NCBI RefSeq assembly: GCF_004010195.1
Contig: NC_057752.1
Span: 7,755,651-7,787,121 of the forward strand
DNA from: Chiloscyllium plagiosum
Lineage: Eukaryota
DNA length: 31,471 nt
Reading direction: 5' to 3'
The notes beneath the pieces are model-generated. The model made no database searches. It was not told the DNA's origin and saw nothing but the letters and a program-made list of their open reading frames with translations. Positions 2,133 to 31,471 of this stretch are shown here, piece by piece (the first letter of the stretch is position 1; every line of letters starts with the position of its first letter). The position numbers were made by a program, and so were the translations under genes.

Positions 2133-4206
2133 GGTAAATCCTGTCGATAAATAATATTAATGACTAGACTCTGTTGGTGTTGTAATAGGCAGGACACACA
2201 AAATGTTTGTTCATTAAAATCAAGGTGGTGTGCAAATTCTGTGCACTTTGTGTAATATTCACATGATGTTTCAGTACTGAATGGTGATATCCATATTAAA
2301 CTTGTGGTATATGACAACAGAGGTTTTCATATGTTTGTGTGCAAATATATCAAAATGTTCACAGATTGCAATGGTAATTAGAGGTCAGATTGTCTTAGAC
2401 AATCAATATGATTTGTTTCTCTGTAACACAAGACATACCGTCATTCTGCAGTAGTGAGAGTTTGTCAGTTACAAATCTTCTTAATTATCAGCATAATTTG
2501 AGCTGCTGTCTAATATCAATACCCTTCTATGACAAGAACTCAGTTTAACCAGTCTGCAGTAAATAATAATAATTCTGTATGAAATCATTTGCCTCAGAAA
2601 TTAATGGGTCAGATTTGACTGCCTACCTGTGCCATGGATTGTGTATCTGTCCCGGTGCCAACTCCTCTGCCACGTATATTGTTAGCCAATCTAGGTTACC
2701 TTAGATATTATTTTCCATCAAGGAGATAAAGTATGAGAGCAGAGGAAGTTGTGCCAGTGTTATTTACGTATCTTTCATCTGTGAATATGTTTTGTAAATA
2801 TTGTATACACTGGCAAAAGTAGTGAGCCCCAGCATGGGGGCAGAGTTCACATGTGAGGCATATTCCATTGTCAGTTTTTACATTGAATACTGTTCAGTGA
2901 AGTCTTGCCACAGTAATAGAATACAATGAGCCAGCTTACAGCTTTATATAACTCAAAGGATTAATTAAGAGGGCTTTGAGTAGCAATGCAATGATAATGA
3001 CCAAGAAATTAGAGCATAACATGAATCCATATTCAAGTTTCAATGCCATTTTTATGCTGGTTATGATTTTTAAATCTACATTAAATTGAATGTGAATAAA
3101 GATCCTATTAGAAATGTGTCCCATGAGAGTTGCCTTAAACAATTATGACAGCAATTTTTAAACGTTGCAAAATGAAGAGATGAAAGTGAAAGGTCTTTAA
3201 TACAGAACATCATCAAGGTTTGAAGACAAGATAGAATGAGAAGTATGGATTTTGTAATGCCAGACTCATGTTTTAAAAGCCTGAAAATTGAAGGAAGAAG
3301 AGATGAGGGAAATGAAGAGTTCCATGTTTTGAGGATCTAAGAAGAAAGTGGCCTGACATCCGCACATTGAGCATAAAATGAAAATAAGGAGCACGTGAGA
3401 CAGTTTATTTGTAGTTCAGAAGAAACAATACAGGAAGGTTTAGAGTCTCTTAGGCCATTATGGAATAGAATAAAGAAAAGTATATAATGGTGAGACCTGT
3501 AAGCTCGAGGTTTTTGTTTTGTCCGTTGGTGCAGTGTAGCAAGAAAGGTGCCTAAAGACCTTCATCCTGATATGCAATCATTATTTAATATCCTAGTTCG
3601 AAACAATTCAGTTAGGCAATGTAGTCTGATGCCACCTGACATGTCCTTAGGTACTCTGGATAAATTCTTGGATGCAGGTAAAGAAAATTGCTGCATCTTC
3701 TAGTCATCTTTCACCTTAACAAGCGCAAACAAGGCAATGTGTGGGATAGTTTTCTTTATGTATAGCTCTGAAGAACAGCATAATGCCTCTTTTAAGCTGC
3801 ACGATTGATCATGTGTTGAGAAAGTGAAGAAGGGGTAAATCAACAATTGGTGTTGACAGTTGATGTCTTGGGACCTGTCAAGGGTAGACTCAGGGACACA
3901 TCATATTAGAAAGTGAGGCCCCAGACAGTGCTGAATGTTCCTGCCAAGCACTGAGCAGCAACATTGTATTGCAGAAATCATATCTTAAAATTAGTCTTTT
4001 GCACTATGTATTTGTTTAGAAAACAAATACTATGCAGCTTGACAAACCCTTATGTAATTTACTTGTCCATTCAGGTGTATTTAAATTCATGGCAATTTAG
4101 TTCAAGTCGAGTATAAAAAGCCTTGTACGAAAAGGTGTAAAGGAATTTAGGTATAAGCTGAATTCCTGAATACTGCACCTGCTATTGTACTGAGCCAAAC
4201 TAATAG

Positions 4207-4291
4207 GGGTGGCATGGTGGCTGTGTGGGAGTTTGCACGTTCTCCGTGTGTCTGCGTGGGCTTCCTCCCACAATCCAAAGATGTGCAGGTC
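4207..4291 (+). mobile_element. HE1 (V-SINE) fragment, internally deleted, running into the gap
   Basis: gggtggcatggtggct is joined directly to the V-domain gtgtgggagtttgcacgttctcc...tccaaagatgtgcaggt. It lacks the tRNA-like segment present in 6715-7044. Confidence 0.85.
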
Positions 4292-4791
4292 NNNNNNNNN
4301 NNNNNNNNNNNNNNNNNNNNNNNNNNNNNNNNNNNNNNNNNNNNNNNNNNNNNNNNNNNNNNNNNNNNNNNNNNNNNNNNNNNNNNNNNNNNNNNNNNNN
4401 NNNNNNNNNNNNNNNNNNNNNNNNNNNNNNNNNNNNNNNNNNNNNNNNNNNNNNNNNNNNNNNNNNNNNNNNNNNNNNNNNNNNNNNNNNNNNNNNNNNN
4501 NNNNNNNNNNNNNNNNNNNNNNNNNNNNNNNNNNNNNNNNNNNNNNNNNNNNNNNNNNNNNNNNNNNNNNNNNNNNNNNNNNNNNNNNNNNNNNNNNNNN
4601 NNNNNNNNNNNNNNNNNNNNNNNNNNNNNNNNNNNNNNNNNNNNNNNNNNNNNNNNNNNNNNNNNNNNNNNNNNNNNNNNNNNNNNNNNNNNNNNNNNNN
4701 NNNNNNNNNNNNNNNNNNNNNNNNNNNNNNNNNNNNNNNNNNNNNNNNNNNNNNNNNNNNNNNNNNNNNNNNNNNNNNNNNNNNNNNNNNN
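4292..4791. other. Assembly gap (500 N)
   Basis: Run of exactly 500 N. Confidence 1.
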
Positions 4792-5454: not shown

Positions 5455-5615
5455 TCATCCCATTTTCTGGATCACTCTGCCTTTATTCCTGATGAAGGGC
5501 TTTTGCCCGAAACGTCGATTTTGCCTGTCCTCGGATGCTGCCTGAATTGCTGTGCTCTTCCAGCACCACTGATCCAGAATCTGGTTTCCAGCATCTGCAG
5601 TCATTGTTTTTACCA
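5455..5615 (+). mobile_element. PLE pLTR 3'-end fragment (non-autonomous)
   Basis: Homologous to the pLTR at 31360-31450: attcctgatgaagggc...gcccgaaacgtcg...ggatgctgcctga..tgctgtgct.ttccagca, plus a terminal tail ccagcatctgcagtc. Confidence 0.85.
5485..5520 (+). ncRNA. Minimal type I hammerhead ribozyme motif, intact core
   Basis: CUGAUGA (5489-5495), extra A, stem II GGGC-UUUU-GCCC, GAAAC, GUC cleavage triplet (5514-5516), self-complementary ACGU stem III. Stem I is weak (AUUC/GAUU). Confidence 0.75.
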
Positions 5616-6535: not shown

Positions 6536-6660
6536 TTCTGAAGAAGTTATATCGGATTTGAAACATTAACTCTCTCTCTGTCTCTCTCTCTCTCTCTCCA
6601 CAGATGCTGCAAGACCTGCTGAGTTTCTCTACCACTTTCTGTTTTGGTTCCAGATCTCAG
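6536..6660 (+). mobile_element. Decayed PLE pLTR end with degenerate hammerhead and an expanded (CT)n tract
   Basis: ctgaagaa...gaaacatta, (CT)n at 6570-6598, then ccacagatgctgcaagacctgctgagtttctctaccactttctgttttggttccagat. Confidence 0.7.
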
Positions 6661-10999: not shown

Positions 11000-11605
11000 C
11001 TCAGTTCAGGTTTTAGCTTGAGTTCAATTTGTGGGTTCAAGTTCCAATCCAGTAGTTGAGTACCTGATAGGCTGTCATTCTGGTGCAGTATTGAGGGAGC
11101 GATGCAATGTCAGAGATTTCATTTTCAAACCAAGTTGGTGAGCCAGTTCTGTTCAAATGAATGCTAAAGTTTCAGTGGCCATCATTCTCCCAGTCAACTA
11201 TGCGAAAGTGAGTACTGCAGATGCTCGAGATTAGAGTCTAGATTAGAGTGGTGCTGGAAAAGCACAGCAGATCAGGCAACATTCGAGGAGCAGGAAAATC
11301 GATGTTTTGGGCAGGATCCCTTCATCAGGAAGGGCTTTGTTACCCTTCCTGATGAAGGGCTTCTGCCCGAAATGTCGATTTTCCAGCTCCTCAGATACTG
11401 CCTGACCTGCTGTGCTTTACTAGTACCACTCTAATTGACTTCATTCTCCTAGTGCCTTAGCTGATTCTCTTTCCTCAAACAACACACCAAAAGCAGATTA
11501 GCTTGTGAATAATTTCATTGAATTTTGTGGGATTTAGTGTGTGAAATGGCTGCCATAACTGTCTACATAACAGTCACTTTACTTCAAAATAATGTATATG
11601 AAGCA
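11000..11605 (+). mobile_element. SacSINE1-like DeuSINE interrupted by a PLE-derived fold-back element
   Basis: B-box-like ggttcaagttcc (11034-11045) and gtgcagtattgagggag. After the insertion it continues cctcaaacaac..aaaagcagatta...tttgtgggat...aaatggctgcc...acttcaaaa. Confidence 0.65.
11198..11440. mobile_element. Palindromic non-autonomous PLE derivative with two back-to-back hammerhead motifs
   Basis: Arms 11235-11334 and 11343-11440 are reverse complements around an 8-nt loop, and each carries ctgatgaaggg..gccc(g/a)aaa. Flanked by tcattctcc(c/t)agt at 11182-11194 and 11441-11453. Confidence 0.88.
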
Positions 11606-11611
11606 CTTTTT

Positions 11612-11925
11612 TCTTTAATGGGATGTGAGTTTCACTAGCATACCTGCCATTTATTGCCCATCCCTAATTGCCCTTGAGAAGATGGTGGTGAATCATCATT
11701 TTGATCACTGCAGTCCATCTAGTGTAGGTAGACCCACATGCTGTTAGGAAAACATCTCCAAGATTTTGACTCATTGACAGTGAAGGAACAGCAACATAGT
11801 TCTAAGTCATGTTGATGTATGGCTTGGAGGAGAACTTGCAGGTGGCAGTGTTCCCATGTATCTGCTGCTGTTGCCCTTCTCGGTGGAGGGGAGAGGGTTC
11901 AAGGTTTGGAAGATAGTACTGAAAT
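11612..11925 (-). mobile_element. CR1-group LINE 3' fragment (same family as 28752-29344)
   Basis: catttattgcccatccctaattgcccttgagaagatggtggtg...gaacttgcaggtggcagtgttcccatgtatctgctgc aligns by eye with 28770-28990. Confidence 0.78.
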
Positions 11926-16899: not shown

Positions 16900-18560
16900 A
16901 CATTAAGTAGATATGTTTGGAATTCCAAAAAAAAGCATTGCTGCAGGAGAAGATGTTTGATCACTTGGGTATTGTAAGGACTGAAGAGCTTGAACCTATA
17001 TCAGGACAGCATACAAAATAAAATTGGTTGATAGGTTGGAGAACATGTGGAGTCAAAAGAATGAATAGTAAATAACAAGTAGAGATTAAGTAGTTACCCA
17101 GATTGGCAAATGATGGAAAGTGATGTTCCACAAGGATCAGCACCGGGCCCGCTGTTCACAATTTTTATTGAATGATTTGGACACAGGCACCAGAAGTACA
17201 ATTTCACAATTTGCAAATGACACCAAACTGGGGACTATAGCAAATACAATAGAGAGTTGTGACAAAATACAAGAATATATCAATAAAATTGCAGAGTTAG
17301 CAAGTGATTGGCAAATTAATTCAATATATATCAGTACAAGGTACTAAATTTTGATCGAGGCCACACACTCCTTGGAAAATAAGTGTCTAAATGGCAGAGA
17401 GAAACAGTGATCTGGAATATAAACATTGAAATCATTAAAAACATGACACTGGTTGTTAAAGCCATTACTAAAACAAAAATTGCTGGCACTCATCTCCAGA
17501 GGGATAGAATTGAAATGCAGAGAAGTTATGTTAATTTTGTATTGAACTTTGGTTGGAACATCCTTGGAGTACTGTGAACAGTTCTGGTTTCCATATTATT
17601 ATAAAAATCACAGTGCAACAGAGGTTTACCAGCATCATCCCAGAGCTGAGATTATGCCTATCAGGAAAAATTGAACTGGCTAGAGAAAAAAAAGACTGAC
17701 AGGTTATTCTGATATAGGACTTTTAAGATTATAGCTTGGATTTTCAGGGAGTCAGGATGACTTGGGATCCCTTTAAAAATGGCAAGCAAGTACTGATTCC
17801 GGGATTTTCAACCCCGTTCCTATGGTTTTCCAATTTTCACCAGGCACTTTTCAGGAGGTGGGCTGGATCAGGTTACAAGCCCACACCCAAGGAGACATGG
17901 AGGGGAAACAGGGCGTGTGTGGGAATGGAGGGAGCATGAGGGGGTGAGGGCTGGAGGGACTTTCTGCTTTGATTATCACTGAAGCACAGCACTGAGTTGG
18001 GTCATTTAAAACAAACTGTCTCACCACCTGACAGCACAAGCAAGTTTTTCCAAGGTTGGCTGGCCCAACTGCAGCCGGCACCTGCCAAATCCTACGTCTA
18101 CCCAACATCTCCAGCATGGCATGAAGATCCCATCCTTGTGGGCACTTTTGCCTGAGGTAGGTGCATCAGCCAGGACATTTTCTGACTCCTGCTGCCCAAC
18201 TCAAGGATGAAACTCCAGCCCTATGAAAGACTTTGATAGGATAGACAAAAGAAAATTATTCCGCTTCCACTTGAGCTACAAATGAACTAGAGGCCATCAA
18301 TAAAAAATAGTCACTGATAAATCCAGGAGGGAATTCAGGATAAACCTCGTCTTGTGAGTTGTTTGGATGGGGAGCTTGCAACCGTAGGGAGCAGTTAAGA
18401 TGTATAGTGTAGATGCAGTTAAAGGGAAGAGAGATAAGAATCTGAAGAAGAAAGGGTAAAACAATGACATGATTAGATTGGATGAAGGGAGAGGGAGGTA
18501 GTTCATGTAGAGCAGAAACACCATAAACACCAAAAAGCCTTCTTCTATTAATGCTACTAT
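16900..18560 (+). mobile_element. Old CR1 LINE ORF2 (RT and C-terminus) remnant, split by a MITE
   Basis: WQMMESDVPQGSAPGPLF..NDLDTGTRSTISQFANDTKLG (cf. GVPQGSVLGP, FADDTKL) and LEYCEQFWFPYY. FKIMKDFDR is restored on removing 17733-18224. Confidence 0.85.
17733..18221. mobile_element. Non-autonomous DNA transposon (MITE), 3-bp TSD, PIF/Harbinger-like
   Basis: TAT is duplicated at 17730-17732 and 18222-18224. Imperfect TIRs agcttggattttc / gaaactccagccc, subterminal inverted ggagtcagga / ttctgactcc, and higher GC than the flanks. Confidence 0.75.
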
Positions 18561-18704
18561 GAATTCCTTCTCAGCTCGAAGTACATCATCCTCTCTCTCT
18601 TATGCTGAAAACAAGATTTATCTTGGCCCTTTATGCAAACCTATTCTTTCCTAGGATCTCAAGAGCTGTAGATTTTTTTTATCCTTTCCTTCCTCCAAAC
18701 TCGG

Positions 18705-19039
18705 TCCCAAAAATCTGGATATCTCAGCTTTAATTATGTTGAACAACAGAGCATCCACAACCCCCTCAGGTGAACCACTCTTAAGAATCACTACCCCCGA
18801 GTGGAGAAATTTCATCTGATCTCAGTCCGAAGTGATCAGCCTCTTATCATGAGACTGTGCTCCATCTCCCCCCATGTTTTAGATTCCCCGGCCAGGGGGT
18901 GATAATCTTAGTATCGACCCTGACAAAACCCTTCAGAATCTTATGTATCAATGAGATTACCTTTCATTCTTCTAAACTCCAGTAATATAGACCCAATGTA
19001 CTCAGTGATCTATCATAGGAGAATCCACTCATCCCAGGA
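18705..19039 (-). mobile_element. CR1 LINE fragment
   Basis: Reverse complement resembles the CR1 ORF2 C-terminus (LGLYYWSLEE.KVISL / YKILKGF / IR*NFSTRG-like segments). Confidence 0.65.
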
Positions 19040-19624
19040 GACGTTTGACAATACAACACCTCTGTTGAAAAGATGGCACTAAGACAAGAATAATAAAAGA
19101 AACTGCTATTAGATTGAAATGATAAGAGATGCTAGTGAAAAGACAGTTGGCTGCACTTGTATTTAATTGAATGAAAAAGGAAATGTTAGTTCCAGCACAT
19201 CCAAGAATGTTTTTAGATCAAAAATATTGCTTTTATTGATTCTTATTCTCTGATTTTTCTTACTTTGTAGCATGTAAAGTGAGGTTGTGTGTCACTATTG
19301 CCAGCCTGTATTTTCCCTGAGATGTGCTGAATGCATCTATTACTCAGCCATGAGCCCAATTAAGCGCAAAATCATCTATTTAGTTTGATTACTGCAGCAA
19401 CATGTTTTTTTTTCCATACATGACAGAATACATACAACTTCATGTATGGAACTCAATAAGCCAACAAATAAGAGTTTCTAAAATCCAATAGAGGGCTTTT
19501 CTCACTTGATCACTTCAGTACATTTACAGTCCCATCAATAGCCAATTTTAAGGAAAAAGGAAAGCAAAATCCTATATTGATAATGGCAAGATTACAGTAA
19601 CCGTAAAGATGGTTTGTTTGAAAT

Positions 19625-27714: not shown

Positions 27715-27810
27715 AGAACCAAAACATGTGATGCTGGAAAAGCACAGCTGGTCAGGCAGCATCCGAGGAGCAGGAAAGTTGACATTTCAAGCACAAGCTC
27801 TTCATCATTC
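27715..27810 (-). mobile_element. PLE pLTR end with degenerate hammerhead motif
   Basis: tgctggaaaagcacagctggtcaggcagcatccgaggagcagg. The minus strand reads tgatga-a-gagc-ttgt-gctt-gaaat-gtc. Confidence 0.8.
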
Positions 27811-27961
27811 CTATGATTTTAAAAAGTTCCAAGTGCTGGAAGCCTACAATAAAAAACAGCAGGTGCTGGAAGTGCACAACATTTATATTAATATCTAATA
27901 GGTTAGCATTTCATGTGTAAATCATGATTATACCAAGTCTATTCTATGGATATATAGTATC

Positions 27962-29344: not shown

Positions 29345-30105
29345 AGATTACAGTTTTATCTTTCTTGAAAAAAAAAGGTTATTATTGTTCAATAAAGTAT
29401 ACTTACCTTATGTCCATTGTAACTCTGGACAACTAGAAAGGGAGTGATGCTTAGAAACATAACTCAATCTCAACTTAACATCTCTGGCCCATACTGTATG
29501 TGCCCAGCTTGTTGTCTCCTGAACAGCAGGCAATCTGCAAGTGGCATGTCTTTTCATCAGCACCAATATTACCCTCTCATACATGCATGTTTGTGTATCT
29601 CAGTGTCACCTTGTGTTTAACATTGAAAATAATTTGCCAAAATCTAACCCATGTAATACTTCAAAGTCTTATAAAAAGAGCCTCGTGATATTCACCCCTC
29701 AATTAGACACAGAACCCTGAGGCCTTTTCATGTTTGTCCAAAAGAATCAATAAAATCTTCAGATGGATAGATCAGCCCTCAGGCTTTGCTGAGCAATATT
29801 CAGCTGGTGCAGCAAATTAACACTTGCATAGCCAAGTGATTACTCATATTCATTCTCTCCAGTTCTGTTCATGAATTATGTTGATGAAGCTAGTTTGTAG
29901 CTCACACATTAACTGCAGAAAATAGATCTCTGTTCTCCCATTGAAAATGTACAAATTCTGAAAGGTAACATTAATACAGGTATAAGGCATGCAGTGCAAA
30001 TGGGAGAAGTGCAGCATCAATAAAAAAGGGGGTGAATAGAGATCAAAGTTGAAACTTTATTGCTGGAACAGCACAGCAGGTCAGGCAGCATCCAGGGAAC
30101 AGGAG

Positions 30106-30141
30106 ATTCGACGTTTCGGGCACAGGCCCTTCTTCAGGAAT
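30106..30141 (-). ncRNA. Minimal type I hammerhead ribozyme motif, intact
   Basis: Minus strand reads AUUC-CUGAAGA-A-GGGC-CUGU-GCCC-GAAAC-GUC-GAAU. Confidence 0.8.
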
Positions 30142-30273
30142 GAGCAGAGAGTGTTCAGCAGGAGAAGATAAAAGGTAGGGAGGAGGGACTTGGAGGAGGG
30201 GAGTTGGAAATGTGATAGGTGGAAAGAGGTCAAGGTGAGGGTGATAGGTCGGAGTAGGATGGAGGCGGAGAGG

Positions 30274-31122
30274 TCAAGAAGAAGACTGCAGGACAGGAAG
30301 GCGGTGCCGGGCCGGAAGGATCCAGCTGAGACAAGGGGGGGGGAGGGGGATGAAGAAACTGGTGAAGTCCAAGTTCATCCCCTGCGGTTGGAGGGTTCCC
30401 AGTCGGAAGATAAGACGCTCCTCCTCCGACCGTCGGGTTGTTGTGGTTTGGCGGTGGATGAGTCCAATGACCTGCATATCCTCGGTGGAGTGGGAGGGGG
30501 AGTTGAAATGCTGTGCTACAGGGTGGTTGGGTTGATTCGTCCGGGTGGCCCAGAGGTGCTCTCTGAATCGCTCCGCAAGTAGGCGGCCTGTCTCCCCAAT
30601 ATAGAGGAGGCCACACCGGCTGCAGCGGATGCAGTAGATGATGTGGGTGGAGGCCCAGAGGTGCTCTCTGAATCGCTCCGCAAGTAGGCGGCCTGTCTCC
30701 CCAATATAGAGGAGGCCACACCGGCTGCAGCGGATGCAGTAGATGATGTGGGTGGAGGCCCAGAGGTGCTCTCTGAATCGCTCCGCAAGTAGGCGGCCTG
30801 TCTCCCCAATATAGAGGAGGCCACACCGGCTGCAGCGGATGCAGTAGATGATGTGGGTGGAGGCCCAGAGGTGCTCTCTGAATCGCTCCGCAAGTAGGCG
30901 GCCTGTCTCCCCAATATAGAGGAGGCCACACCGGCTGCAGCGGATGCAGTAGATGATGTGGGTGGAGGCCCAGAGGTGCTCTCTGAATCGCTCCGCAAGT
31001 AGGCGGACTGTCTCCCCAATATAGAGGAGGCCACACCGGCTGCAGCGGATGCAGTAGATGATGTGGGCGGAGGTGCAGGTGAATCTGTGGCGGATATGGA
31101 AGTTTCCTTTGGGGCCCTCCAA
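30274..31122 (-). CDS. PLE GIY-YIG endonuclease domain fragment (no ATG, N-terminally truncated) with 5 in-frame copies of the GIY-YIG core
   Basis: GPKGNFHIRHRFTCTS, then [HIIYCIRCSRCGLLYIGETGRLLAERFREHLWA]x5, HPVAQHFNSPSH and RRSEEERLIFRLGTLQPQGMN. The conserved Y, YIG, R, EH, E and GxN residues and the Cys/His insert typical of PLE endonucleases are present. Confidence 0.9.
   Translation of the reverse strand: MEGPKGNFHIRHRFTCTSAHIIYCIRCSRCGLLYIGETVRLLAERFREHLWASTHIIYCIRCSRCGLLYIGETGRLLAERFREHLWASTHIIYCIRCSRCGLLYIGETGRLLAERFREHLWASTHIIYCIRCSRCGLLYIGETGRLLAERFREHLWASTHIIYCIRCSRCGLLYIGETGRLLAERFREHLWATRTNQPNHPVAQHFNSPSHSTEDMQVIGLIHRQTTTTRRSEEERLIFRLGTLQPQGMNLDFTSFFIPLPPPCLSWILPARHRLPVLQSSS
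30547..31071. repeat. Tandem repeat, 5 x 105 bp
   Basis: Units start at 30547, 30652, 30757, 30862 and 30967. Units 1-4 are identical, and unit 5 differs at 31007 and 31068. Confidence 0.98.
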
Positions 31123-31369
31123 CCACAGGGGATGAACTTGGACTACACCAGTTTCTTCATCCCCCCTCCCCCCACCTTGTCTCAGCCAAATCCCTCCAGC
31201 CCGGCACCGCCTTCCTGACCTGCAGTCTTCTTCTTGACCTCTCCGCCTCCACCCTACTCCGACCTATCACCCTCACCTTGACCTCTTTCCACCTATCACA
31301 TTTCCAACGCCCCTCCTCCAAGTCCCTCCTCCCTACCTTTTATCTTCTCCTGCTGAACACTCTCTGCTC

Positions 31370-31405
31370 ATTCCTGAAGAAGGGCCTGTGCCCGAAACGT
31401 CGAAT
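31370..31405 (+). ncRNA. Minimal type I hammerhead ribozyme motif, intact
   Basis: Stem I AUUC/GAAU, CUGAAGA (31374-31380), extra A, stem II GGGC-CUGU-GCCC, GAAAC, GUC with predicted cleavage after C31401, palindromic ACGU stem III. Confidence 0.8.
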
Positions 31406-31471
31406 CTCCTGTTCCCTGGATGCTGCCTGACCTGCTGTGCTGTTCCAGCAATAAAGTTTCAACTTTGATAT

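Follow-up and report, generated by a model that had tools for sequence, protein, structure and literature searches.

Within the window, that is, the whole stretch of 31,471 nucleotides of Chiloscyllium plagiosum DNA that was analysed, a 246-bp stub without any open reading frame (ORF) lies inside a repeat and is flanked by two copies of a 13-bp sequence. It consists of two hammerhead-bearing pLTR ends of a Penelope-like element (PLE) set head to head, both of which stop at the hammerhead's upstream edge. The features that one needs to follow the argument are given here in order of position, together with the larger element near the end of the window against which the stub is compared.

11030..11181, no strand assigned: left part of the host repeat, placed by contig depth at 11080-11119; boundaries approximate.
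11182..11194, plus strand: left copy of the probable 13-bp TSD, identical at 13/13 positions to the right-hand 13-mer of organisms B and C.
11195..11234, minus strand: PLE tail of 37-40 nt, on the left arm only, placed by alignment, by homology to 5569-5601 and by contig extents.
11235..11331, minus strand: left arm, a PLE pLTR 3' end from the hammerhead upstream edge, placed by alignments and by contig depth (millions-fold, against 17 in the flanks).
11301..11328, minus strand: left minimal type I hammerhead, decayed (G12A; C15.2-A16.2 mismatch; A-G at the helix II loop end; helix I of 2 bp).
11332..11345, no strand assigned: non-family centre, comprising a 3-bp extension per arm and an 8-nt loop; nucleotides 1-7 of the centre are the same as the helix II letters after GAA in the copy at 5489.
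11346..11440, plus strand: right arm, a PLE pLTR 3' end without tail, placed by alignments and contig depth.
11349..11376, plus strand: right minimal type I hammerhead, decayed (core boxes intact; U15.2-G16.2 wobble; helix I of 2 bp).
11441..11453, plus strand: right copy of the probable 13-bp TSD; organisms B and C have C in place of the T at 11450.
30042..31469, GIY-YIG C-terminus on the minus strand: young PLE, truncated at its 5' end and adjoined by a 355-nt copy in inverse orientation (Pfam PF01541, E = 3.2e-30, a score inflated by 5 tandem stretches).

Palindrome, Flanking Duplication and Host Repeat

The inverted arms, at 11242-11334 and 11343-11435, are 93 nt long each and 85% complementary (14 mismatches in 93), with 8 nt of loop between them. 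The CUGAUGA cores start at 11349 on the plus strand and at 11328 on the minus strand, 20 nt apart, and the loop lies 6 nt from each, which agrees with the initial annotation of two inverted pLTR ends joined by an 8-nt loop just upstream of each CUGAUGA. The extra terminal tail, which had been assigned to the left arm only, is seen there in the alignment as well, running from 11234 down to about 11195-11198, that is, 37-40 nt past the point at which the right arm stops. This tail is family sequence, since it matches 5569-5601 and family contigs reach 11196-11199.

For each strand, the predicted fold is one long hairpin of about 95 bp (-158.7 and -143.4 kcal/mol, with z-scores of -17.7 and -17.4, respectively), and none of 200 shuffles of either strand was as stable. 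The proposal that a transcript of either strand gives a double-stranded RNA hairpin therefore holds for the predicted fold, provided that the locus is transcribed.

The 13-mers at 11182-11194 and 11441-11453 are identical at 12 of 13 positions, a match reached in none of 6000 random placements when the test was kept free of N; in two runs that included the N gap at 4292-4791 (500 bases), 12 was reached once and twice, respectively, alongside N artefacts. Organisms B and C, in one contig each, carry C at 11450 where the window has T, making their right 13-mer the same as the window's left one (13/13); on this ground, the reading of the right 13-mer as leftover tail sequence was set aside. No empty site occurs among the 15 joints listed in the contig alignment, which has a further 323, so we infer the TSD status of the repeat, which had been noted earlier as TSD-like and which is probably a true TSD. 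A search for TSDs at the copies at 5470, 27728 and 6538 returned only weak candidates of 8-10 nt, which were rejected.

The left flank at 11080-11119 has a contig depth of 16,904-19,283 in run X6, against 17.1, and stands at about 1000 times single-copy depth in both DNA-scale runs (X6 and X14); the host sequence is therefore a repeat. The initial annotation has this repeat as a DeuSINE, a putative label, and there is no second copy of it in the window. A shark DeuSINE, SacSINE1, is named in PMC4824008. Elsewhere in the window, a 56-nt direct repeat of 96% identity occupies 794-849 and 2016-2071, 1,222 nt apart.

The Arms Are Ends of a Penelope-Like Element

Four further pLTR ends in the window show 80-83% likeness to the arms. 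Two of the four belong to a GIY-YIG-coding PLE at 30042-31469, both ends of which match the arms at 80-83% over 71-80 nt. This identifies the arms as pLTR ends from a Penelope-like family. When contigs were aligned to 11020-11619 at 80% likeness, 48,616 matched in run X6 and 53,943 in run X14; contig depth, which is no copy number, reaches the millions over the arms, compared with about 17 (X6) or 10-17 (X14) over the unique flanks. The stub arms are thus the hammerhead-bearing pLTR ends of a high-copy PLE.

Neither the stub nor 30042-31469 encodes a reverse transcriptase (RT), and no RT-coding parent of the stub's exact subfamily was seen. An Rfam search of the whole window returned no hammerhead and no other credible family (2 hits were sub-threshold); the hammerhead motif was identified by pattern together with its published description.

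The element at 30042-31469, whose 355-nt inverted copy has 96.6% identity, carries the same minimal hammerhead type in intact form, with a helix I of 4 bp. The stub had been described as a miniature of it, and the two do belong to one structure class, that of the inverted 5'-truncated copy, but the junction in the larger element lies inside the ORF and its subfamily is a different one, as the 80-83% likeness indicates. The ORF of the larger element also contains, at 30544-31073, five near-identical 105-bp tandem units, each with a 35-aa GIY-YIG N-terminal motif in frame, which represent either RT slippage or an assembly artefact.

The window also has single stubs. Those at 5470-5601 and 27716-27812 are non-inverted and belong to the same pLTR family, the 27.7-kb copy starting directly at a damaged hammerhead core. 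A second, more distant end family is found at 6538-6650 and 1503-1580, with a hammerhead-like core at 6538-6568.

State of the Hammerheads and Age of the Insertion

When inspecting such motifs, one looks for an intact core (G12, A13, A14), a paired 15.2-16.2 position and a helix I of 4-5 bp. G12A and a C-A mismatch are present in the left motif and a U-G wobble in the right one, and helix I is 2 bp long in each arm, where the 30042-31469 copies have 4 bp. The stub has no hammerhead partner on the same strand, the nearest plus-strand motif being 5,860 nt away.

Cervera and De la Pena (PMC4209133) describe single minimal hammerheads as failing to cleave in vitro and dimers as cleaving weakly; there would accordingly be little activity in the stub to inhibit. 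In the system of Frangieh et al. (PMC11167929), hammerhead cleavage depended on protein and was dispensable for insertion in vitro. The earlier suggestion of a working, self-inhibited ribozyme finds no support at this locus, where the minus-strand motif has lost both G12 and its 15.2-16.2 pair and both arms are down to 2 bp of helix I.

The insertion is present in three organisms. Contigs of organism B span both junctions (X14 records 1 and 8, with 4/198 and 3/213 differing letters), as do those of organism C (X17 records 9 and 16, with 5/231 and 7/195). This divergence of about 2-3% compares with 15% between the two arms and, if the arms were identical at the start, the insertion would be several times older than the split of the three organisms. 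Of the 14 arm mismatches, 11 are transitions and 4 fall at CpG, and there is no strand bias in G-U pairs (7 vs 4, p = 0.55), so that the divergence of the arms looks like neutral decay.

An Extremely Short PLE Insertion Unit

The locus is very probably the old remnant of a single insertion, made up of the head-to-head, mutated pLTR ends of a high-copy PLE with a one-sided tail and a 13-bp duplication, and it is likely inert. Its arrangement is that of the PLE insertion unit already described, of which it is an extremely short example. The initial annotation had raised the possibility of a distinct kind of element, which is unsupported given how well the stub matches the units described in PMC3846280, PMC8557442 and PMC4209133.

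In the examples given by Arkhipova et al. in 2013 (PMC3846280), adjacent inverted pLTRs are typical, with a 31-bp tail on one pLTR, and the inversions are mostly head-to-head, with junction palindromes that were interpreted as self-priming. PLEs are described in PMC8557442 as generally carrying an inverted 5'-truncated copy and a tail of 30-40 bp at one end. The EN+ insertion unit drawn from these two accounts thus has head-to-head inverted pLTRs, a one-sided 30-40-bp tail, a TSD around the unit and a junction palindrome. All of these are shared by the stub, which has a pLTR end homologous to those of GIY-YIG PLEs, an inverted 5'-truncated copy, a tail on one side only and the probable TSD. 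It differs in the length of the duplication (8-10 bp in the rotifer examples, 13 bp here) and in having no ORF.

A similar comparison can be made with the minimal hammerheads of metazoan PLEs. The pairs described in 2014 (PMC4209133) are dual minimal hammerheads on opposite strands, about 100-700 bp apart. The stub has in common with them the CUGAUGA box, an extra base before helix II, G10.1-C11.1, the palindromic 15.2-16.2 positions of the family and the placing of dual motifs on opposite strands. Its cores, however, are only 20 nt apart and decayed, with a helix I of 2 bp and a helix II of 4 bp.

How such a unit might arise is suggested by the Poseidon PLE protein, which cuts and extends both target strands and for which reverse transcription has two internal start sites, one tail length apart (PMC11167929). 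Two-strand cutting and two RT start sites would together produce a TSD and one arm with a tail and one without. We propose that the GIY-YIG endonuclease of an autonomous PLE would nick both strands 13 bp apart, and that reverse transcription would proceed from two PLE start sites, one yielding the tail and the other none. Only about 95-135 nt would be copied, as far as the hammerhead upstream edge, where the 3' end of the cDNA may snap back on a 3-nt microhomology and copy a few bases of helix II. A second switch would then produce the mirror arm, by fold-back synthesis or by the joining of two cDNAs primed on the two strands, and neutral mutation of the copy would follow.

The snap-back step is suggested by the centre itself. 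Positions 11332-11345 differ from the family's upstream sequence, both arms share three non-family bases, and the majority letter of the family at 11345 differs from that of the stub (44 contigs, X6). Compared with the helix II letters after GAA, the centre matches over 7 nt in the copy at 5489, 6 in the right arm and 3 in the decayed left arm, which suggests, with moderate confidence, that the snap-back copied helix II of the ribozyme itself. We go no further than this because the minimum-energy fold predicted for the unextended end is something other than the 3-bp hairpin with which the snap-back would begin.

Head-to-Head Junctions at Other Loci

The depth at the loop centre is 2,770-4,270 in X6 and 822-1,211 in X14, far above single copy, which indicates head-to-head junctions at about this position in other loci as well. 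These contigs, aligning across the centre, contradict the reading of the stub as a one-off, which the initial annotation had named as grounds for giving up its proposal. One of them, X14 record 7, spans 11252-11388 with 24 differing letters and 3 gaps and is too divergent to be the orthologue.

The annotation had also reasoned that a loop shared across loci would mean a propagating family and unique loops recurrent template switching. The contigs listed lean to recurrent junctions, with at least six loop lengths and many junction points. Run X6 has at least six gap classes at 11337-11343 (1, 2, 3 and 5 nt) in 72 contig entries, with a summed depth of about 2,060, or roughly 50-75% of the depth across the loop. 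There are at least seven loop gap classes in X14 (25 entries, summed depth about 450) and at least one, of 15 nt, in X17. Among the 15 joints listed, 13 join 12 distinct left-arm points (11256-11307) to 11346-11349, bearing in mind that joints at a likeness below 95 or with short sides are often repeat-derived and that contigs break at palindromes. Centres that vary in this way among contigs favour junctions rebuilt at each insertion rather than a propagating family.

The main rival explanation is a non-autonomous, palindromic, MITE-like subfamily of the PLE, copied as a unit by the PLE protein and having a centre common to many loci. It would account for a loop depth in X6 so far above the 17 of the flanks, for the share of the depth across the loop, a quarter to two thirds, that is without a listed gap, and for the three non-family bases beside the loop that are common to both arms; moreover, pLTRs by themselves suffice to mobilise captured DNA in trans (PMC3846280). 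Nevertheless, the loop-length classes of both X6 and X14 and the many other junction points speak against a common centre, and the loop-spanning depth in X6 is only about 0.2% of that in neighbouring arm bins. A shared snap-back route would yield similar centres without common descent, and the one-sided tail marks a fresh insertion unit; we therefore consider this explanation unlikely. The same small chance is given to a fuller version, in which a minority of head-to-head stubs would be true 'PLE-MITEs', that is, palindromes of about 250 bp remobilised whole by the Penelope protein, with helix II seeding the fold-back and the hairpin acting as a family-wide silencing trigger.

Metagenome contigs were scanned for the head-to-head pattern, giving six loci, none of them homologous to the stub beyond the pattern. 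One of the six, L002, folds as a hammerhead on both strands and belongs to an unrelated family, so the form is not peculiar to the stub's lineage. At 454-579 it has perfect 62-bp arms, a 2-nt loop and one intact predicted hammerhead per strand, each with a 7-bp helix II and a palindromic helix III, and the contig ends at the right arm. Another locus, L004, has a perfect 100-bp palindrome at 468-567 centred between two CUGAUGA motifs, and no hammerhead core by the pattern used. A scan of viral contigs for the family motif gave no matches.

Transcripts, Editing and Silencing

It is very unlikely that the stub has been retained as a functional source of double-stranded RNA in host transcripts, whether as an ADAR or Dicer substrate or as a self-inhibited ribozyme. 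The predicted hairpin of about 95 bp is stable on both strands, the insertion is fixed in three organisms, contigs of run X17 (whose RNA status is a guess) lie over both flanks, and small RNAs are known to arise from Penelope copies (PMC3846280). Set against this, all 14 of the arm mismatches are uncompensated and without strand bias, and the ribozyme cores have decayed. In the raw RNA run X21, 2,462 reads aligned, of which 7 did so at 99% or more, with a flank depth of 0-1; the aligned reads are mostly family reads from other loci, and this counts weakly against the explanation, about 2% of the run having been read. Rows of A>G and T>C differences were considered as editing and rejected, being mostly paralogue-derived and present in the DNA runs too. 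Our literature search found no paper on hairpin siRNA specific to head-to-head hammerhead stubs.

The least probable explanation, that local inverted duplication by DNA repair or replication slippage made the palindrome from a single pLTR stub after insertion, could draw on the shared non-family bases of the centre, since one arm end may be templated from the other, but the 13-bp duplication brackets both arms exactly, the right arm stops at the tail start as PLE start sites predict, and similar junctions recur among other contigs.

Relation to Other Elements and Significance

As a PLE insertion remnant, the stub should be distinguished from two kinds of element that it resembles. Animal non-LTR retrozymes are likewise non-coding, hammerhead-bearing and related to PLE pLTRs, but they are described as tandem repeats in direct orientation that carry canonical type I hammerheads and yield circRNA (PMC7229834; bioRxiv 10.64898/2026.07.22.740005), whereas the stub is inverted, minimal and decayed. 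Because its hammerheads form an inverted pair, the stub is not a retrozyme, and the initial annotation was right to set it apart from direct tandem ones.

With MITEs and the crocodilian Chompy repeats, the stub shares its shortness, its palindromic form and its flanking duplication. It is unlike them in that its arms are retroelement pLTRs, its ends are asymmetric and its centre is inconstant among copies. A link of Chompy repeats to Penelope is putative, the literature searched giving no confirmation of it in print. Nor did that literature contain a description of shark stubs as small as this one or of palindromic PLEs that move as a unit.

Taken as a single locus, the stub is of little importance. 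Taken together, stubs of this kind are fossils left by an unresolved PLE insertion reaction, and their junctions, clustered at the hammerhead edge, and their centres derived from helix II are countable genome-wide and could separate fold-back from two-strand priming. A subfamily of them that truly moved as a unit would amount to a MITE counterpart derived from a retroelement.
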